From the IMG/VR virus record IMGVR_UViG_3300042940_002333: a stretch of 20,000 nucleotides of DNA; one strand, given 5' to 3'. The translations under genes were made by a program, and so were the position numbers. Of the stretch, positions 3,907 to 19,102 are shown piece after piece. Below the pieces are notes generated by a model that had not been told where the DNA came from, made no database searches, and saw nothing but the letters and a program-made list of their open reading frames with translations. The number at the start of each line of letters is the position of its first letter. The first letter of the stretch is position 1. This DNA comes from an uncultured virus (IMG/VR IMGVR_UViG_3300042940_002333). Its lineage: Duplodnaviria > Heunggongvirae > Uroviricota > Caudoviricetes.

Positions 3907-4022
3907 TGACACCAGAGGAAAGAGAAAATAGAAAAAAAACGATTGTATTTTTCTTAGGAGCCTTAGCTTTAATTGCTTTGGTAATCATATACGTTAAGCA
4001 ATTAAAAGAAGCAGAAGATTAA
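3906..4022 (+). CDS. 38-aa single-pass membrane protein (not in ORF track)
   Basis: Translated by hand: MTPEERENRKKTIVFFLGALALIALVIIYVKQLKEAED*. TAATG overlaps with both neighbours (3904-3908, 4020-4024). Confidence 0.8.
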   Translation: MTPEERENRKKTIVFFLGALALIALVIIYVKQLKEAED

Positions 4023-4702
4023 TGAAAACAAAGAACATAATAATAATTGGCGTGGTTACCATTGTGGTACTCGGCATTGTTATTTACGTTCTTGTGAGAA
4101 AAGGTAAGTTTAAAAATAAGAACCCAAAGAACATACTTATTGTAGGGGATAGCCAAAGTGCGATAAAAACGGCTGACGGGAAAGATATTTCTTTTACCTG
4201 GTCAAGATTATTGAAGAACTCTTTAGAACCAAAAGGCTACTCGGTTGATGTACTTGCTTTAGGCGGTATGCCTACTAAATGGATGAGGGATAATTTACCG
4301 GCACAACTATCAAAGAAAAAATACGATAGGGTTTATATTCTCGGAGGCGGTAACGATTCGGCTAATTCATCTATTGCTTTAAAAACTACTCTTGATAATT
4401 TTCAGTCAATGGTAGATATGGCAAACGCTAATGGTGCAGATCCTTTTATTATGCTGGGGTATAGAATTGACAACTTTAGTGATTACCGAAAAATGCCTTT
4501 AACTATTTACGTTAAGAAGCAAGAGGATTGGATTCCTTACATTGAGAGAAGAAAACAAATACAAGATAATTTAAAGAGAATTAAAAATGCTGGGATTGTT
4601 CCCGTTTATGATTTGAATGGAATGACAAGTGATGGAATACACCCGACGGCACAAGGACATAAGATAATTGCTCAAAAAATGATAAACCATATTACCCAGT
4701 AA
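4022..4702 (+). CDS. SGNH/GDSL-family esterase with N-terminal membrane anchor
   Basis: Block I ILIVGDS (Ser44), block II GG, block III LGGGND, block V DGIHP (Asp204/His207); N-terminal TM IIIIGVVTIVVLGIVIYVLV + RK. Confidence 0.9.
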   Translation: MKTKNIIIIGVVTIVVLGIVIYVLVRKGKFKNKNPKNILIVGDSQSAIKTADGKDISFTWSRLLKNSLEPKGYSVDVLALGGMPTKWMRDNLPAQLSKKKYDRVYILGGGNDSANSSIALKTTLDNFQSMVDMANANGADPFIMLGYRIDNFSDYRKMPLTIYVKKQEDWIPYIERRKQIQDNLKRIKNAGIVPVYDLNGMTSDGIHPTAQGHKIIAQKMINHITQ

Positions 4703-5409
4703 TGACAAAGGAAGAAGCATTAAGAGATTTTTTTAATACTGTTCTCAAAGGGGAGAGTAAGACTTATAATGACCATAACTGGTATAGTACGTCTGGACTT
4801 AGGGGTTACATACAGGGAAGTGGAAATAGCCCTTATTCGTTGCTTAAAAAACCATTGAGTGAGTACACGCTTGGCGAAATAAAACAATTTCAGTCAAGAT
4901 CACGAGATTCGGTTGGACAGCTTTGGGCAACAGGTCGCTATCAGATTATACCAAGTACATTAAAAGGCATTCAGTCAAAGCTGGGATTATCAGATTCTGC
5001 AAAATACGATAGGGCAACCCAAGATAAAATGGCTTACGGTTTAATTGTTGAGAGAAAACCGATTAATGACTACATAAAAGGTTCCGTGCCAGACACAACA
5101 ACTACCAGGCAAAACGCAGCGTTGCATATGGCAATGATCTGGTCAAGCATTGGTGTTCCTTACGCGGTAAATGGAAAACAAACTAATCAAAGTTATTATC
5201 CAAAAGACAAAGCTTCGGTTGATACTGCTGCAGTTCAGGCAAAACTACAACAATTAAGGGGTAGTATGCTCTCAAGAGGTATTGATTTAGCTAAAGAGAA
5301 CCCGAAAACAACCATAGCTATCTTTGTGATAGTAGCAATAATGATAATTGGAGCTATAATGTTATTAATTTATAGAAAAAAGATTGCAATAGCTCTAACA
5401 AAAGTGTAA
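4702..5409 (+). CDS. Lysozyme-superfamily (lambda R / GH104-like) muramidase or lytic transglycosylase with C-terminal membrane anchor
   Basis: Putative catalytic Glu18 (VLKGES..YN), ATGRYQIIPSTL, QDKMA and WSSI motifs; C-terminal TM IAIFVIVAIMIIGAIMLLIY + RKK. Confidence 0.8.
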   Translation: MTKEEALRDFFNTVLKGESKTYNDHNWYSTSGLRGYIQGSGNSPYSLLKKPLSEYTLGEIKQFQSRSRDSVGQLWATGRYQIIPSTLKGIQSKLGLSDSAKYDRATQDKMAYGLIVERKPINDYIKGSVPDTTTTRQNAALHMAMIWSSIGVPYAVNGKQTNQSYYPKDKASVDTAAVQAKLQQLRGSMLSRGIDLAKENPKTTIAIFVIVAIMIIGAIMLLIYRKKIAIALTKV

Positions 5410-8733: not shown

Positions 8734-9105
8734 ATGTTTGGATTCGATTTAGGAAAAATGCTTGGCGGCGACGGTGGTGGCGGAAATGGAATGATTATGA
8801 ATATGATTATGAAGCAACTTGCCTCGCCAGGAACACAAAAAATGATTGCCGGTAAAATTGACGAAATGTTCGCTCATTTAGCTGGAACTGTAAAGTGTGA
8901 AAAGAAAGATTTAGCTTTGTTGTTAAAACTGGAAATGGTACCAGAATTAAACGAAAAAGGTGAACATCTTTTAGAGGATGATGGAAAAGGTGTAGCCGTA
9001 CAAAAGCTTACTCAGAAAGCGATTATCTATGTAATGGTTGGCAATAAAGCAGTACAAAAGATTGCTATTGATCAATTTCTTGCGATGATGCAGGAACAAG
9101 GATAG
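8734..9105 (+). CDS. Hypothetical protein
   Basis: 123-aa ORF with Met/Gly-rich N-terminus; no family recognised. Confidence 0.75.
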   Translation: MFGFDLGKMLGGDGGGGNGMIMNMIMKQLASPGTQKMIAGKIDEMFAHLAGTVKCEKKDLALLLKLEMVPELNEKGEHLLEDDGKGVAVQKLTQKAIIYVMVGNKAVQKIAIDQFLAMMQEQG

Positions 9106-9116
9106 GAGACACAAAA

Positions 9117-9368
9117 ATGACAATGTATTCACCAGCACAACCAGAGGTATTAATAGCTTCTGGTACAATAGAACAAATTAGCTCAATGTATTCTTGGGCT
9201 ACTTTTATTAATAGTGGAGCTGCGGCTGGAACGATTGATTTCGGCGGCGGAAACATTGTTACTCTCGGAGCGGGCGAATCACTCACAATGCCTTACCTTG
9301 GTCGTCCATACGCATTTACAGAGATTGATGGTACTCTTACGACTATTAAAATCATTTATGTAAGATAA
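9117..9368 (+). CDS. Small all-beta protein, candidate penton/vertex base
   Basis: 83 aa of short beta strands (ATFINSG, GTIDF, IVTLGAGESLTMP, TTIKIIYV), directly upstream of spike genes. Function is inferred. Confidence 0.6.
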   Translation: MTMYSPAQPEVLIASGTIEQISSMYSWATFINSGAAAGTIDFGGGNIVTLGAGESLTMPYLGRPYAFTEIDGTLTTIKIIYVR

Positions 9369-9399
9369 AATGGGATTTGAAGGATCTTCTGGTTGGCAC
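9367..9399 (+). repeat. 33-bp direct repeat, copy 1 (AAA + ATGGGATTTGAAGGATCTTCTGGTTGGCAC)
   Basis: Identical to 11034-11066; encodes MGFEGSSGWH. Confidence 0.95.
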
Positions 9400-10647
9400 C
9401 CACCTGGTGGTGGTGGAGGTGGCGGAATGGCTTTTACTTCTCTTACTTATGCTGCGTTACAAACTTTAATAGGAACATCAGCGTTAGTACAAGGAAATTA
9501 TTATTTAATAAATGACTATCAAACGATTTACGACCAACCTGATTATGATGCGGCAGGTAGTCCTAAACCGGTAGTTACAACAAATACAGGCTCTGTTGAA
9601 CCTTTAATTGTTCAAGCGTCTTCTGTTAATCAGATAAATGAAAATGCTATTTCAACTTTATTCCCGTTAGATATTATTCAATACGATGTAACGTTTACTG
9701 AAACAGAGGTTATGTTACAACCCGCAAAAGGCAGAATAACATTACGAATAGATACAAATAATAATAGAACTAACTATGACCATAGAGCAGTTGTATTTAA
9801 AAGATACGAAACAAGTCCCTCAAGTGGAATCTATACGGTTGTTAATGATAATGGAAATGCTTCATTAGATACAATACCAACATTTGGAGCAGACTGCTAT
9901 TCTAATAAAATAGGTAATTTTTATACAACTTTAGATTTAAACAATACAGGATTTATATTATCAAATAATATTTTTGGAGATAATTGTTCTGATAATACAA
10001 CAGGAGCAGATTTTTATAACAATACAATAGGCTCAATAGTTTATCAAAATAAGTTTGGGGATTTATGTCACAATAACGTCATCGAAGGTGATGCTTATAA
10101 CAATAACGTAAACAATAATTTTAGCTTAAATACGATTGGAAGTCAATTTTATAATAACTCCATATTCAATGGATTTAGACAAAATGTAATTGGCTCACAA
10201 TTTCAAGGAAATGAAATTTTAAGTGGATTTAGAGAAAATACAACGTCAGCAGGATTTGCTAAAAATAGAATTGGGTATGATTTTAGAAATGTAGGCATAA
10301 CTATTGGAACAAACTTTTTAGATAATCAAATAGGAAATAATTTTAGTTCAAATGTTGCTATCGGAGATAACTTTCAAAATAATTCAATAGGAGATAATTT
10401 TCAAACTAATACAATAGGAGATGACTTTAAAAGCAATAATATTTGTGATAATTTCACGTCAAATTCAAATATTTTAAACAATTTTAAATTTAATATATTT
10501 CAATCGCCAACTACTTTAAATTATTCAACAGCTACTCACGTTTACGGGAATTATAATTGTACTATATTTTCAAATAGTACGGGGTTACAAAGGTTGAGTT
10601 ATTTTGATGCCGTAGATACATTAACAATAGTAAATCCCAATTCATAA
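9370..10647 (+). CDS. Fibre/spike protein with Asn-rich beta-helix repeats
   Basis: MGFEGSSGWH + Gly7 linker; LTYAAL..YYLINDYQT..EPLIV..KGRITLRID..YDHR..FKRY region resembling Bacteroidota-phage fibres; about 11-aa N[TS]IG[DS][NQD]F.. repeats. Confidence 0.75.
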   Translation: MGFEGSSGWHPPGGGGGGGMAFTSLTYAALQTLIGTSALVQGNYYLINDYQTIYDQPDYDAAGSPKPVVTTNTGSVEPLIVQASSVNQINENAISTLFPLDIIQYDVTFTETEVMLQPAKGRITLRIDTNNNRTNYDHRAVVFKRYETSPSSGIYTVVNDNGNASLDTIPTFGADCYSNKIGNFYTTLDLNNTGFILSNNIFGDNCSDNTTGADFYNNTIGSIVYQNKFGDLCHNNVIEGDAYNNNVNNNFSLNTIGSQFYNNSIFNGFRQNVIGSQFQGNEILSGFRENTTSAGFAKNRIGYDFRNVGITIGTNFLDNQIGNNFSSNVAIGDNFQNNSIGDNFQTNTIGDDFKSNNICDNFTSNSNILNNFKFNIFQSPTTLNYSTATHVYGNYNCTIFSNSTGLQRLSYFDAVDTLTIVNPNS

Positions 10648-10973
10648 TGGAAGAAAAAGCACCAATACCAACAAGCGTAGCGTATTTAACATCAGAAAAT
10701 TACGCTACATATACTACGGTAACTTACGAGCAAGTAGTAAGTGCTTTAGGATATACTCCTTATGATGAAACAAATCCGAGTAAATTCATTTCGGGCATAG
10801 ATTCATTAATGGTTACTGACGCTTTAGGTTATACTCCTTATGATAGCACAAACCCCGACGGATTTATTACAGTAAGAGCACTTGAAGGTTATGTGCCTTT
10901 TTCGGGTGCTAGTACAGATTTAGATTTAGGAACTCATAGTGTAAGTGGGATTATTCTGATATTTTTGTATTGA
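10647..10973 (+). CDS. Short fibre-shaft-like protein, possibly a truncated remnant
   Basis: Two ALGYTPYD.TNP..FI repeats and YVPFSGASTDLDLG, motifs usually internal to long phage fibres; abrupt end. Confidence 0.6.
   Translation: MEEKAPIPTSVAYLTSENYATYTTVTYEQVVSALGYTPYDETNPSKFISGIDSLMVTDALGYTPYDSTNPDGFITVRALEGYVPFSGASTDLDLGTHSVSGIILIFLY
10743..10844 (+). repeat. Intragenic 24-bp repeat GCTTTAGGwTATACTCCTTATGAT, 78-bp period
   Basis: Copies at 10743-10766 and 10821-10844, one mismatch. Confidence 0.9.
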
Positions 10974-11033
10974 ATAAAATTTATTAGCAAAAAATATAGT
11001 TTACAGAATTTTTGTATATAATAAGATAAAATA

Positions 11034-11066
11034 AAAATGGGATTTGAAGGATCTTCTGGTTGGCAC
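11034..11066 (+). repeat. 33-bp direct repeat, copy 2
   Basis: Identical to 9367-9399; TAAGATAAAAT also lies just upstream of both copies (9361, 11022). Confidence 0.95.
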
Positions 11067-12536
11067 GGTCCAAGTGCCGGGGGTGGTGGTGGTGCAATTC
11101 CATTAGCACAAGGCGAAATATATGTCGATGATAACGCTAATACACAGACTTTAACTAATCAAAACACATTCTACAAACTCACAGCACCAACTTGGTCTGC
11201 TGGTACTAATAATGGCTTTACGCCAAATCTTGGCAGTCAAGAAATTCAATGCAACGGTGACGGAACTTATTTAGTAGTTTGTCAGGGCGATATCATTGCT
11301 CAAAATAATGAGCAAATAGAGTTTGCTTTATTCGTTAATAATGTTGAGCAAATAAATTTTGAATCGCTTGTTACAGGAAGAGGAGGTGCTCAACATTCTT
11401 CTTGGGGATATAATGGATTTGTTATTTTATCTGTTGGAGATATTGTAGATGTTCGAGTTCAATGTACTTCAAGTGCAGGTGAAACAATACTCTTACAACA
11501 TATAAATTTAAGTTTACAAGCAAGTGCAGGCGCAACGGGTGCAACGGGTGCAACGGGTGCTGGTGGAGCTCTAGGTTATTGGGGTTCTTTTTGGTCAACT
11601 GATGATCAAATAGCAGCTAATACAACAACTGCTTATCCAATAACTTTAAACAATACCGACCCTGATTCTAATGGAGTAAGTATTGTTTCTAGTAGTCGTT
11701 TAACTTTTGCCTATGCAGGCGTTTATAATATTCAATTCTCTGCCCAGGCTGACAGAATATCGGGTAGCGGTACTGACACTATTGATATATGGTTTCGTAA
11801 AAATGGAACTGATGTAGCAGATAGCAATACTGTTGTAACAGTATCTGGTTCTGCATTAGCAGCTAAGACCGTTGCTGCTTGGAACTATATGGCTGAGTGT
11901 AATGCTGGTGATTATGTAGAACTAATGTGGAGAACTTCAGATACTAGACTTGAGTTAGTTGCAAGTGCGGCAGGAATAATTCCTATTAGACCAGCAGTTC
12001 CTAGTGTTATTCTTACAGCCTCTCAAGTTATGTACACTCAAATTGCACCAAGCGGAAATCCAAACATTTCAGTTACAACTGATACTGTTTTTTTAGAAGT
12101 TCAGAGTGGAATGACAAATTTGAACTCATTGTACACAGTAGATGGATTAAGTTTTGATAGATACCGTATTAGTGCAATAGTACCAAAGACAAGTATGTCA
12201 GGAAACAATACCTACGTTTTCTACTTAGGTACGGTTTTTGACCCTGATAATACTTTAACTTTCAAGGTTTATGATAACAATTCAGTTGTTAATTCTTCAG
12301 ACCCTGTTCTTCAAGAATGTCATACAGCACTAACACCATCTGCCTTAGTTTACGACACGGTAAATGGATTTGTTGTACCTGTGAGTTTAATGACGATTAC
12401 TACGGATAATTCAACAGACCCTCGATTCTATGATATTTTCTTATTAGCAGGAGATACAAATATCTTTGAAGCCGAAGTCTATGTGGATTTTGAGTTTTAC
12501 ATAAAACAGGGTACAGCTATTACTTTCACAAATTAA
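11037..12536 (+). CDS. Spike protein: N-terminal peptide + Gly hinge, two C1q/TNF-like beta domains joined by a short collagen-like segment, plus a third beta domain
   Basis: MGFEGSSGWHGPSAGGGGG; domain 1 DGTYLV..LSVGDIVDVRV; GATGATGATGAG; domain 2 YWGSF..AGVYNIQFSAQ..IWFRKNG..AGDYVELMW. Confidence 0.75.
   Translation: MGFEGSSGWHGPSAGGGGGAIPLAQGEIYVDDNANTQTLTNQNTFYKLTAPTWSAGTNNGFTPNLGSQEIQCNGDGTYLVVCQGDIIAQNNEQIEFALFVNNVEQINFESLVTGRGGAQHSSWGYNGFVILSVGDIVDVRVQCTSSAGETILLQHINLSLQASAGATGATGATGAGGALGYWGSFWSTDDQIAANTTTAYPITLNNTDPDSNGVSIVSSSRLTFAYAGVYNIQFSAQADRISGSGTDTIDIWFRKNGTDVADSNTVVTVSGSALAAKTVAAWNYMAECNAGDYVELMWRTSDTRLELVASAAGIIPIRPAVPSVILTASQVMYTQIAPSGNPNISVTTDTVFLEVQSGMTNLNSLYTVDGLSFDRYRISAIVPKTSMSGNNTYVFYLGTVFDPDNTLTFKVYDNNSVVNSSDPVLQECHTALTPSALVYDTVNGFVVPVSLMTITTDNSTDPRFYDIFLLAGDTNIFEAEVYVDFEFYIKQGTAITFTN
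11532..11558 (+). repeat. 3 x 9-bp perfect tandem repeat GCAACGGGT (collagen-like G-A-T)
   Basis: Read directly from the sequence. Confidence 0.95.
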
Positions 12537-13143: not shown

Positions 13144-13184
13144 ACATAATTGTTAATTAAGTCTTAAAAATAATATCTTTCAGT

Positions 13185-13243
13185 TTTGTTATTTAAAATA
13201 AAACTAATACATTTGGCAAAAGTATAATGTAATGCTATTTTTG
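13185..13243 (+). promoter_or_regulatory. Two interlocked Bacteroidota sigma-A promoters
   Basis: TTTG(13185-88)-N19-TACATTTG(13208-15) and TTTG(13212-15)-N20-TATTTTTG(13236-43); both match the -33 TTTG / -7 TAnnTTTG consensus, in the largest intergenic gap. Confidence 0.65.
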
Positions 13244-14214: not shown

Positions 14215-14681
14215 TGTATCCATTAGGCACGTTAAAAGTAGCTTGGATTGAAAAAGATCCAGAATATATGTCTTCGGATATGTTCGGTCCAAATGATTTA
14301 AAAAAAGCGGTAGCCTTTGGCGAGGAAGTAGGCGACTATTTCATAATGCAACTTATTAGTCAAACCAAAGACCGTTACCGTTGGAAAGTATTACCATACG
14401 GGAATTACAATTTATATAAACGCGGTATGAAACTGCGTAAAAAATTTAATAGTATTTTTAATAATGACGAGAGTGGTTTTGATGATGATATTAAATTAAT
14501 AAACGATTCTGATGAAAAGAAAACTCAAATGGTTCGCCTTGTTGATGTTTTCTTTATTGGTCCGTTACTTATTTATGCGTCAACCTTTAAAGCGTTACCA
14601 TCCTATCTTAGAGTTGCCTTATTGTTAATAGGTATTGCAACAATAGTTTATAACGGAAATAATTATCTTAAAAATAAATGA
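14214..14681 (+). CDS. Two-domain protein with C-terminal TM hairpin
   Basis: Soluble N-domain, acidic linker DESGFDDD, then VRLVDVFFIGPLLIY and LRVALLLIGIATIVYN TM segments; TAATG coupling to the holin. Confidence 0.75.
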   Translation: MYPLGTLKVAWIEKDPEYMSSDMFGPNDLKKAVAFGEEVGDYFIMQLISQTKDRYRWKVLPYGNYNLYKRGMKLRKKFNSIFNNDESGFDDDIKLINDSDEKKTQMVRLVDVFFIGPLLIYASTFKALPSYLRVALLLIGIATIVYNGNNYLKNK

Positions 14682-16054
14682 TAGGAGTACCATATAACCC
14701 TGCCCAATGTTGTTTTCTGTTAAGTCAGTCGCTTAACGCAAATCAGTTTGATCCGAATGTTCCTAACACGGGAGTAACACCACACAATCTTCTTTGGAAT
14801 TTTGTGGAGAATAAATTACAGTGGGTAGAAACATTAGTTGGCGGAATTATCGTGCAGGAGCTTGGTGCCACGCTATTTCCTAACAGAAAAATAATAACCG
14901 TAGATGCAACTTACGGAAATAATACTACGGCGGCGACAAATCCTTACAATACGGAATTTGCGTTTAGTGATTGTGCTGCGGCAGTAGCTACGGCAGTAGC
15001 TGGTGATTTAATTATTGTAAACCCGGGTAATTATACGGTAAATCAGATTCAAAAAGATCAGGTAGATTGGTATTTTCATAACGGCGCCATAGTAAACACT
15101 CCTGGTCACGTTTTCCAAACTAATGGTATGACATTTAATGTTTACGGATTCGGAACATTTATAGCTAACGGAATATCCTTGCCAGCATTTGTTATAAGCT
15201 TCTTCTCTAATGTAAATATAACTTGTTCTAAACTTATAGGAGCTGCTACTACTTTTGCTTTCTTTCAGGGTGTTTATGTTGAGATAAACTCTACTTGTAA
15301 TTTCACTGCGTTTGACTTGGTTGATTGTAGCGTTAATCTTGGGAACGCATTTTTCTGCGAGAATAATTCAAAGCTTATAGTTACGGCTCCAGAGGTTCGT
15401 TTTAGTTGGATAGGATATGGCTGCGGAGATAATTCTAGAATTATAGTAAACGTACCGAAAACGGTTGCTTATGATGTTATTGGTGATTTCACTTTATTTG
15501 GTTCAACTTATGCTTCTATTGCTAATGGAGTGACAAATGCGATAATCAAAATTTATGGCGATATGGATACCGCAAAAACAGCACCAGATCCAGGGCCAAT
15601 TTCAAGAACGTCTGGTGCCTTGGGTATTAGATCTTCTGGTGTTGATTGTGAAATTCACATTACCGGCAACAAATCTGTAACACAAGGCTTACGCGCGGTT
15701 TATATTGACACACTTTCTGCGAAAATTTTTGTAAATACTGATATAGAAGAATTACAGGGCGATGGTGTTTATTTTAAAAGAGGAAAGGTGTATTTGAACA
15801 GAAGATTAACGACGCCGGCAGCTCCTTCGATTGCTCCAGGGATACCTGTTAATGCTATTGAAGATGGTGCTGGTTTAATTGTATTAAACGGCGCTGTTTT
15901 AATAAACGGTAACGGCGGCCCAAGTATAGATGGATCTACACTTCCTGTTCCTCCTGTTAATTATGCAAATTACCAAGGCGTAGCAAGTACAGCTCCAGTT
16001 GGAGCGGCCGAGGTAATAGGAAACCCATTAATAGTAAGTCCTTTTGTAGAATAA
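14678..16054 (+). CDS. Pectin-lyase-like beta-helix spike / putative polysaccharide depolymerase
   Basis: IITVDATYGNN..AFSDCAAAVATAVAGDLIIVNPGNY is the typical N-cap of right-handed beta-helix proteins, followed by beta-rich repeats; ATGA overlap. Confidence 0.7.
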   Translation: MIGVPYNPAQCCFLLSQSLNANQFDPNVPNTGVTPHNLLWNFVENKLQWVETLVGGIIVQELGATLFPNRKIITVDATYGNNTTAATNPYNTEFAFSDCAAAVATAVAGDLIIVNPGNYTVNQIQKDQVDWYFHNGAIVNTPGHVFQTNGMTFNVYGFGTFIANGISLPAFVISFFSNVNITCSKLIGAATTFAFFQGVYVEINSTCNFTAFDLVDCSVNLGNAFFCENNSKLIVTAPEVRFSWIGYGCGDNSRIIVNVPKTVAYDVIGDFTLFGSTYASIANGVTNAIIKIYGDMDTAKTAPDPGPISRTSGALGIRSSGVDCEIHITGNKSVTQGLRAVYIDTLSAKIFVNTDIEELQGDGVYFKRGKVYLNRRLTTPAAPSIAPGIPVNAIEDGAGLIVLNGAVLINGNGGPSIDGSTLPVPPVNYANYQGVASTAPVGAAEVIGNPLIVSPFVE

Positions 16055-17356: not shown

Positions 17357-19102
17357 ATGGATAGCAAACCTTTACTATCAAGAATTTCCCGTGAGGGAAA
17401 CTTTGAAAATTCGTTGGCGTACAAGGCTTCCGACGAGTCGCTTGATCGTGTAGGCGATTTTTTAGAGGGTACAGATCCTAATGTTTCAAGCAACAAGATA
17501 ACAAGACTTAGTAATACTCTTGTTTTTGCTATTCAAAATCCTACTGCTGTTCCTCAAACTGTTGATCTTTTCGGGTTCACAAATAACCTATTTTTAGGTG
17601 CACCAGTTAATCCTCCTCCGAGTATTCTTCAACCTGTCCTTACACCTGTTGGTCTAGGGCCGGTTGACGCTGCATTTTGTCCGTTTAATAATTTCATTTA
17701 TACAGCAGACCCTATTTCGAGTACCGTAGAGGTTATTGATACTGTAACAAATACTGTTTTTGCTACAATCCCTACACCTGGTTTCTTTGGAACATCAATA
17801 GCTTATTGCCCAACTAATAATCAAATGTATGTTGGTGATTCGCTTGGGGCTACAATTATTAGAATTGATTGTGCGACAAACGCGATTGTAGGTGTTCCTA
17901 TCATACCGACGGTTGTTCCACAAACGGCTGGATTAACATATAATTCAGTAAACAACAGTATGTATGTAGTTGGACTTGGAGGTCCTATTATGTGTGAAAT
18001 AAGTTGCGTAACAAATTTAGCGACACCTTTTTTCATTGTTGTAGGTGCGGCGTTTTTACAAAGAGCGGCGTTTAGTCCTGTTTTAAACAGAATATATGTA
18101 ACTGATTCTATAACAAATAATGTTTTTACCATTGATTGTTTGACGAACTTAACTATTCTTGCTACTGTAACCGGTCTTGTTGGATTGCAGAGTATTTCTT
18201 TATGCTCATCGAACAACTCTGTTTATATGCTTGGTTTTACAAGTAATAACGTGATAGGATTAGACACGCTTACAAACATACTTACTCCGATCATACCTGT
18301 TTTAGCGAATAACCCAGCAGATATTTGTTATAATCCAATAAATAATCTTCTTTATGTTACAAAACTAACAAACCAAGTTGCTATTATTGATCCAGTTACA
18401 AATACTGTTTTAAGTTTTTTCTTATCTGGTATTACATCGACAGCTATTATTGTTTATAATGATATATCTAACTCTGTTGGTCTTTTAGCTAATGGTGGTG
18501 CTGCTGGTGAATATGTAGCTTTTGTGCCGATAGCTCCTCCGTCAGCAGTTGTTACTCTTAATGGTGGATTTACCTTAACCGATATTTACCGAGATCTTCA
18601 AGGAAAGTCTTTTTTGTTAGAGGGTGTAAAGATGATAGTTAACTCTATCGATCAGTTAGCGAATAACATAATTGTTAGCCAAAAAACTATTACCGGTAAT
18701 GACGAGTTATTACAGTTCCAGCCGTTAAATTATGTTTCTCCTACAAATCCAAATGCGTTAATAATTGACGCTGCGGATTTCAATATTATGGTAGACAGGA
18801 ATACAAATGTTGATTTAACTATAAACCCTTTATCGTCTTTAGTCATATCGTTTACGATTGGAAGACAAGTTGATAATACAACGCCTCTGTTTGAGGATAT
18901 ATCGAAAGACTGGGGAGCTGGCGCCGACGTATCGGATGTTGTTAGGCTTACAGGAAACCCAATAGTTGATGCTATATTAGAGGCAGAGGCTCAAAAAATA
19001 CTTAGCGATTCTAACTATACCAGTATTGTTCAGTACGCAGAATACCCAAGAGTAACAGGAAATCCAGTTGCTGATATTGCACTACTAAATCAAGGCTTAT
19101 AA
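17357..19102 (+). CDS. YncE/YVTN-type beta-propeller inserted within a putative jelly-roll (capsid-like) domain
   Basis: About 7 blades of ~42 aa (..CP.NN.IYV....N.V.VID..TN) at ~17630-18525; flanked by LVFAIQNPT..TVDLFG and a beta-rich C-domain (SFLLEGVKM..QL..IID..VDRNT..LVISF). Confidence 0.75.
   Translation: MDSKPLLSRISREGNFENSLAYKASDESLDRVGDFLEGTDPNVSSNKITRLSNTLVFAIQNPTAVPQTVDLFGFTNNLFLGAPVNPPPSILQPVLTPVGLGPVDAAFCPFNNFIYTADPISSTVEVIDTVTNTVFATIPTPGFFGTSIAYCPTNNQMYVGDSLGATIIRIDCATNAIVGVPIIPTVVPQTAGLTYNSVNNSMYVVGLGGPIMCEISCVTNLATPFFIVVGAAFLQRAAFSPVLNRIYVTDSITNNVFTIDCLTNLTILATVTGLVGLQSISLCSSNNSVYMLGFTSNNVIGLDTLTNILTPIIPVLANNPADICYNPINNLLYVTKLTNQVAIIDPVTNTVLSFFLSGITSTAIIVYNDISNSVGLLANGGAAGEYVAFVPIAPPSAVVTLNGGFTLTDIYRDLQGKSFLLEGVKMIVNSIDQLANNIIVSQKTITGNDELLQFQPLNYVSPTNPNALIIDAADFNIMVDRNTNVDLTINPLSSLVISFTIGRQVDNTTPLFEDISKDWGAGADVSDVVRLTGNPIVDAILEAEAQKILSDSNYTSIVQYAEYPRVTGNPVADIALLNQGL

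Follow-up and report, generated by a model that had tools for sequence, protein, structure and literature searches.

The DNA analysed here (the window) comprises 20,000 nucleotides of an uncultured virus (IMG/VR IMGVR_UViG_3300042940_002333), whose record is a 71,924-base incomplete viral contig (24% completeness estimate) occurring in lake-water metagenomes. Within it, two otherwise unrelated spike-like proteins begin with the same ten residues, MGFEGSSGWH (hereafter the tag), and the first of their genes lies directly behind a gene encoding a small protein of 83 amino acids (83 aa). The locus contains the following features:

9117..9368, plus strand: 83-aa jelly-roll protein, candidate spike base (socket), from an AlphaFold (AF2) model and homologs
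9367..9399, plus strand: repeat copy 1, comprising the end of a stop codon, a spacer base and the 30 nt coding for MGFEGSSGWH
9370..10647, plus strand: spike 1, 425 aa, with the tag (residues 1-10), a Gly7 linker (13-19) and an Asn-rich repeat body
9406..9426, plus strand: Gly7 linker of spike 1, read from the open reading frame (ORF)
10647..10973, plus strand: untagged 108-aa ORF with two ALGYTPYD repeats, a fibre-like fragment inside the 1667-bp cassette
11022..11032, plus strand: TAAGATAAAAT upstream of copy 2, likely a remnant of the 3' tip of the 83-aa gene, copied along with the tag
11034..11066, plus strand: repeat copy 2, identical to copy 1
11037..12536, plus strand: spike 2, 499 aa, with the tag, a Gly5 linker, a poorly modelled beta domain (about 22-160), four Gly-X-Y triplets (165-176), a TNF/BclA-like domain and an unmodelled C-terminal part
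11571..12047, plus strand: TNF/C1q/BclA-like domain of spike 2 (residues 179-337), predicted local distance difference test (pLDDT) score mostly >85

The original prediction, made from the window alone, proposed that 9367-9399 and 11034-11066 are identical over 33 bp, and they are: the direct repeat is exact, with a spacing of 1667 bp, whereas 100 triplet shuffles of the window yielded no exact repeat longer than 18 bp, and no third copy was found at up to 8 mismatches across the 71,924-base record. MGFEGSSGWH is the start of both the 425-aa and the 499-aa ORF and the sole part common to the two proteins. It is followed by PP-Gly7 in copy 1 and GPSA-Gly5 in copy 2, and the bodies behind these linkers, as had also been proposed, show no alignable similarity to each other (BLASTP with the first 20 residues removed, best E 3.4). 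The identity between the copies stops exactly at His10, the last invariant tag residue, and the glycine linkers differ thereafter. The tag pattern is present on no further ORF of the contig.

The copied stretch seems to reach further upstream than the tag itself. TAAGATAAAAT, previously read as the end of the 83-aa gene recurring ahead of copy 2, occurs exactly twice in the 71.9-kb record (9361-9371 and 11022-11032), its copies being offset by 6 nt relative to the 33-bp repeat. Of the 79 ORFs, the two tagged ones alone have TAAGATAA at most 30 nt upstream. The proposed position directly behind the 83-aa gene holds for copy 1 but not for copy 2, which is preceded by the 108-aa ORF (matching phrog_31472 at E 4.5e-6 and, over 32 residues, Pseudomonas phage AF).

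An assembly artefact was ruled out as the origin of the repeat. A second assembly of the same virus (L005), possibly from the same source, is identical to the window over 9,423 of 9,423 bp, and a 1,694-bp contig piece covering 9370-11063, with the repeat at both ends, was present in all seven lake-water metagenome DNA runs (possibly the source of the window DNA). Where the 33-base piece was listed, its depth was ~2x that of the flanks.

These runs also bear on the idea that the repeat is maintained for recombination, such that a 1667-bp deletion would place spike 2 behind the 83-aa gene and switch host range. The geometry permits this, since the repeats are direct and include the start codon, and one run did show a cassette depth of 0.78 of the flanks. 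However, the cassette-to-flank depth ratios across the seven runs (0.95, 1.03, 1.07, 1.21, 0.78, 0.99 and 1.06; range 0.78-1.21) average 1.01, a contig-based measure that hides rare variants and rules out only a common deletion. Moreover, no 9399-11067 deletion joint was seen among the contigs listed from the runs, and the related viruses described below conserve the peptide and not the DNA. The deletion or swap of the cassette that had been suggested is thus unsupported as a common event, and we consider such a switch the least probable of the explanations weighed here. No RNA run was listed as containing the record, and run X24 held only short unrelated pieces.

We next turn to related viruses. 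A metagenome scan gave 11 loci: this virus, one locus ending inside the 83-aa gene, one chance match and 8 usable loci, which by their 83-aa protein represent 6 distinct viruses. (L005, being the same virus, and L013, which ends inside the 83-aa gene, were left out of the locus counts; L004, L015 and L020-L023, with 27-32 residue matches at E 4e-5 to 1e-3, were dropped as chance before counting.) In each of these eight loci, all of which include DNA past the 83-aa gene, the next gene starts with MG[FY]xG[AS][SD]G[FW]H and glycines; M1, G2, G5, G8 and H10 are invariant, and positions 3 and 9 are aromatic. The suggested check of related contigs for the peptide on other domains thus came out in favour: the tag was found in 8/8 loci, and overall at least three unrelated body families carry it. 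Searches of IMG/VR with tag patterns gave, for one pattern, a single chance match (L001, antisense to a capsid-like gene of a tailed phage) and, for the other, none.

Between relatives the tag codons show up to 6 synonymous differences, and therefore it is the peptide, rather than the DNA or RNA, that is conserved. The stop-to-start gap is -1, 6, 7, 11 or 42 nt in the relatives versus 1 nt in this virus, and this spacing, which varies in frame, rules out that base and spike are fused by a conserved frameshift or read-through. The original prediction also gave weight to the identity of the two window copies at synonymous sites; the identity is real, yet it is less telling because two relatives (L007 and L008), whose 83-aa-gene products are 94% identical, likewise have an identical 30-nt tag. 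Both window tags carry Ser6, whereas the tags of all six relatives carry Ala, which points to a duplication within this virus's lineage.

The same alignment speaks to the proposal that the conserved start serves as a signal for processing or export, i.e., as a cleaved leader or an RNA-level initiation element. Glycine-aromatic leaders are indeed cleaved in some viruses. Yet the synonymous changes indicate a peptide and not an RNA element, and the confinement of the tag pattern to two ORFs of the contig is unlike a general sorting signal, making this explanation very improbable. A further candidate, an N-myristoylation signal suggested by the Met-Gly start, was rejected: the contig encodes a holin and an amidase (Pfam) and the host is therefore a bacterium, whose peptidoglycan wall rules such a signal out, and the aromatic residue after Gly2 misfits the usual myristoylation pattern.

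Upstream of the tagged genes, the relatives are syntenic with this virus, while none of their downstream ORFs matches this genome at E 1e-4. Of note, the relatives' genes past the tagged spike share a 55-60-residue N-terminal module (MA[EN]I...) on different bodies (L006:5503; L007:1536 and 2074, i.e., twice; L010:3881; L011:3456; L012:2806). This module, which is absent from the present record, may be a further connector.

Regarding the spike bodies, that of spike 1 consists of 27-nt spaced repeats that are Asn-rich at nine-residue spacing, and it is predicted from these repeats alone to be a beta-solenoid; spike 1 has no Pfam match and no PDB sequence match. The C1q/TNF-like domain that had been proposed for spike 2 was confirmed as a TNF-like beta-sandwich by the model and by Foldseek, which for residues 179-337 returned BxpB (E 2.6e-8), 4-1BBL (4.5e-8) and the BclA C-terminal domain (5.8e-7); the TNF, BclA and BxpB matches as a group span E 2.6e-8 to 1e-6, with template-modelling (TM) scores by target of 0.63-0.75. 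Homologs of spike 2 cover this TNF-like part, mostly beside collagen repeats. The Gly-X-Y triplets together with the TNF-like domain suggest that spike 2 forms a trimer.

Among the homologs listed (the best 120 of 415 for spike 1 and the best 120 of 730 for spike 2), only two of the 240 entries bear the tag and both derive from the window; it is found on 0 of the other 238. In IMG/VR, the spike 1 body was found at 152 loci, of which 80 were kept; there it sits behind many different N-termini, and 0 of the 80 have the tag or the 83-aa gene within ~6 kb. Because of these two results, it is likely that foreign bodies were grafted behind the tag. The original prediction had held that homologous spikes lacking the peptide would speak against it; body homologs in other viruses do lack it, but this argues for grafting and not against docking. 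Likewise, the complete spikes of the relatives have a C-terminal domain common among themselves, and their match to the window spikes is limited to residues 1-12. In two cases (P0052 and P0055), the spike 1 body stands behind different short aromatic-glycine N-termini with poly-Gly, which are possibly tags for other bases.

The 83-aa gene is single-copy in the contig. A first search found 26 further proteins homologous to its product, of which 24 are full-length (65-89% identity), and a profile search gave 22 cluster representatives, 19 of which are 69-102 aa long; the 83-aa protein is also present on a 107-kb contig. In IMG/VR, searches for relatives of this protein, of one of its distant homologs, and of the capsid candidate and ATPase described below found no real one. 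Ahead of the 83-aa gene lies a 123-aa gene (window 8734-9105) that occupies this place in most relatives as well, at 61-82% identity.

The AlphaFold model of the 83-aa protein shows eight strands at pLDDT 87. Foldseek placed cupins at the top in PDB and small uncharacterised phage proteins at the top in BFVD. In an exhaustive PDB fold alignment, cupins aligned over ~70-75 residues, versus 80-83 for viral and spore jelly rolls, among them Ena1 (Z 7.8), the HFTV1 turret (6.9), YomS (6.9), PR772 chain 6q5u_O (Z 6.8 over 80 residues, 3.0 Å) and the pentameric phage capsid protein 4dmi (Z 6.6). The jelly-roll nature claimed for this protein is thus upheld by its model, and the modelled fold is compatible with a penton or spike base, although the fold alone is insufficient to make it one.

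How do these elements compare with known spike attachment systems? The original prediction cited PRD1 and adenovirus as precedents; the nearest precedents are the tailless Vibrio phage NO16 and the head spike of RcGTA, both nearer than PRD1. The NO16 report describes a trimeric spike, GP13, that anchors via its residues 3-20 in a pentamer of the penton base GP14, in which residues 2-89 form an N-terminal domain with a single jelly roll (PMC13552765). The likeness thus comprises a jelly-roll base domain of similar size and consecutively numbered base and spike genes; NO16 differs in that its spike gene is single, its penton has two domains and its capsid is of the double jelly-roll type. In the present virus, by comparison, the anchor is common to two spike genes that are not homologous, the candidate base consists of a single 83-aa domain, and no sequence similarity to NO16 was shown.

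For RcGTA, the source describes a small pentameric jelly-roll base, Rcc01079, that holds the head fibre Rcc01080 by residues 2-10 only, the remainder of the fibre being flexible and binding capsule; here too the gene numbers are consecutive (PMC7296036). RcGTA differs in its HK97 capsid, its tail, its one fibre gene and an (Ile/Leu)-Gly dipeptide repeat. The tag departs from that dipeptide pattern, having glycines at every third residue, two aromatics and a His, and three PDB fold searches with the 83-aa model did not place the RcGTA base in their top 50 rows.

Adenovirus offers a third comparison. Its two fibres, where two exist, are homologous shaft-and-knob proteins, whereas the bodies of the two spikes of this virus are unrelated. 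According to the adenovirus source, a conserved N-terminal fibre tail (FNPVYPY) docks the trimeric fibre in the penton base, and two fibre genes are present in HAdV-F40 and F41, each vertex carrying one fibre (PMC8156859). Common ground therefore lies in a short docking tail and in two fibre genes able to supply alternative vertex fibres, and the differences are a eukaryotic virus, a much larger penton base and a motif unlike the tag.

With PRD1 and PR772 (P31, P5), the likeness lies in the fold match of the 83-aa model to the PR772 chain, with which cupins tie, and in an Atlas lead to PRD1_P5_spike_N at 0.79. PRD1 P5 has a glycine hinge and a TNF-like knob, and it attaches via a whole penton-like N-terminal domain, in contrast to the ten-residue peptide here. 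In common with NO16, adenovirus and PRD1-type systems, the present locus has a single jelly-roll base (in the model) and a conserved short N-terminal peptide with a flexible linker on variable spikes (8/8 loci). By analogy, the tag likely works as in the NO16, RcGTA and adenovirus systems; membership in none of them is established.

As for the particle, a 232-aa capsid candidate (G000 43886-44584; L003:7887-8585), without Pfam or PHROG match, is adjoined by a 306-aa ATPase that matches Zot at E 1.3e-4, above the Pfam cut-off; neither matches anything in 50,697 GenBank phages. An HK97 capsid or portal found no match among 64 ORFs searched with Pfam and 52 with PHROGs on this incomplete contig, and head and tail matches in these searches were weak ones only. 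A strongly hydrophobic helix is present in 28 of 79 ORFs. Because of the Zot-like ATPase, the hydrophobic-helix ORFs and the lack of HK97 capsid and portal matches, we infer that the particle is tailless and contains a membrane.

Several other genes on the contig deserve mention. A 581-aa protein (window 17357-19102) has a C-terminal part paralogous to the capsid candidate (33% over 140 aa, E 1e-15). Candidate virion entry enzymes are encoded at window 4022-5409, namely a GDSL hydrolase and a protein resembling lysozyme, both with a membrane helix. Very large ORFs (722-2614 aa) occur at L016:184-14996, L017:115-7379 and L018:105-7028, and include two SNF2 helicases, of which one carries an intein-like insert, as well as an ART-PolyVal domain; they resemble polyvalent-protein cargo, in an apparently tailless virus.

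Taken together, these results led us to propose that the ten-residue peptide is a docking tag for a surface oligomer of the 83-aa protein, which would display either adhesin-like spike, a proposal to which we give somewhat better than even chances. Its presumed parts are the pentamer, the vertex position and the peptide binding of the 83-aa protein. The tag would bind the 83-aa oligomer on the surface of what is apparently a tailless bacterial virus, probably at its vertices, and either of two unrelated adhesin-like proteins could thereby be displayed from the same base. The aromatic-glycine tag would pack into the base, the glycine run would act as a hinge and the spike body would bind the host surface. 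With spike 2 trimeric and both spikes mixed on the particles, two kinds of cell-surface receptor would be engaged. As to origin, a short stretch that held the 83-aa gene's tip together with start codon and tag would have been duplicated within the lineage, supplying a captured adhesin gene with a start and a plug; the direct repeat would then be a by-product of this duplication and not a working switch.

The docking function claimed by the original prediction thus gains from the conservation of the peptide behind the 83-aa gene in all readable relatives. Several points nevertheless weigh against our proposal. On the side of the base, all alignments of the 83-aa model have Z ≤8, the range that the alignment tool calls a common arrangement, and cupins come first; the protein has no sequence match to any solved penton (PDB, best E 0.14), and small jelly rolls resembling it are also common in tailed phages (BFVD). 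The penton-likeness that had been claimed therefore stands insofar as penton-type proteins match over the full length, but cupins equal these matches and no specific likeness to pentons over other jelly rolls emerged. With respect to the particle, the ATPase also has a weak terminase match (E 9e-5), the Atlas leads of the capsid candidate stay below 0.9 and point toward Nucleocytoviricota clusters and V18-19, and a head-tail module could lie outside the incomplete contig. As for the tag, none of the relatives shows a second copy, though sequence beyond the spike exceeds 3 kb in L010 and L012 only; there are zero differences between the copies, and selection on copy 2 can accordingly not be shown; and gene adjacency is the only link between the tag and the 83-aa protein.

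The reliance on adjacency leaves room for a different partner. The tag could be an assembly signal for a different part of the virion, be it the capsid candidate, a membrane protein or the conserved 123-aa product of 8734-9105, with the 83-aa protein as cement or decoration. The 123-aa gene is equally syntenic, further shared N-terminal modules exist in the genome, and the wide occurrence of similar small jelly rolls in tailed phages fits this as well. Against it, a small jelly-roll base binds the N-terminal residues of the spike in three solved systems, and the tagged gene follows the 83-aa gene in 8/8 relatives and in the window; we therefore deem another partner unlikely, though the most probable of the alternatives weighed here.

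Alternatively, the tag may dock spike 1 only, copy 2 being a passenger of recent duplication that gave a captured gene its start codon and initiation region, with spike 2 undisplayed or rarely displayed. The copied stretch does include non-coding upstream bases, a fibre-like fragment lies at the junction, and both the lack of divergence, which leaves no sign of selection, and the failure of any relative to show two copies speak for it. However, the identity ends exactly at His10, past which the glycine linkers are unlike, the 499-aa frame of spike 2 is intact and includes a domain of trimer type, and spike 2 stands at full depth in 7/7 DNA runs. A mere passenger is, in our estimation, improbable.

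Two further observations concern gene starts elsewhere in this genome. A 458-aa protein (window 14678-16054) and a 199-aa protein (L002:3134-3733, minus strand), encoded by widely separated genes, have a common N-terminal module of ~80-95 residues that starts with MIGVP[YF]NP (40% identity, E 1e-10), and different bodies, possibly constituting a second anchor-plus-payload system. In addition, two neighbouring small genes owe an identical N-terminal membrane helix to a 93-bp exact repeat (L003:12876-12968 and 13149-13241; G000 48875 and 49148) and have different Cys-rich tails, and several more genes share this start; it appears to reflect the same habit of copying gene 5' ends as is seen with the tag.

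The docking principle is already known from other viruses, and what sets this case apart is that, in one bacterial virus, two non-homologous bodies have just a ten-residue anchor in common. A literature search by title and abstract start, with most subscription papers outside its coverage, found no description of this tag or virus family. More tentatively, and with less than even confidence, we suggest that the virus belongs to an undescribed family of large, membrane-protein-rich bacterial viruses in which a ~30-nt 5' tag can display any adhesin on an 83-residue vertex base, yielding mosaic particles with beta-solenoid and TNF-like spikes. The 83-residue base and ten-residue peptide are small enough for a direct test, and would make a compact protein plug-and-socket pair. 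If our proposal is true, a 30-nt tag would suffice to recruit a foreign adhesin, a minimal route to host-range change, and one genome would run two unrelated receptor binders via one base, in tailless bacterial viruses, in which the change or widening of host range is little studied.

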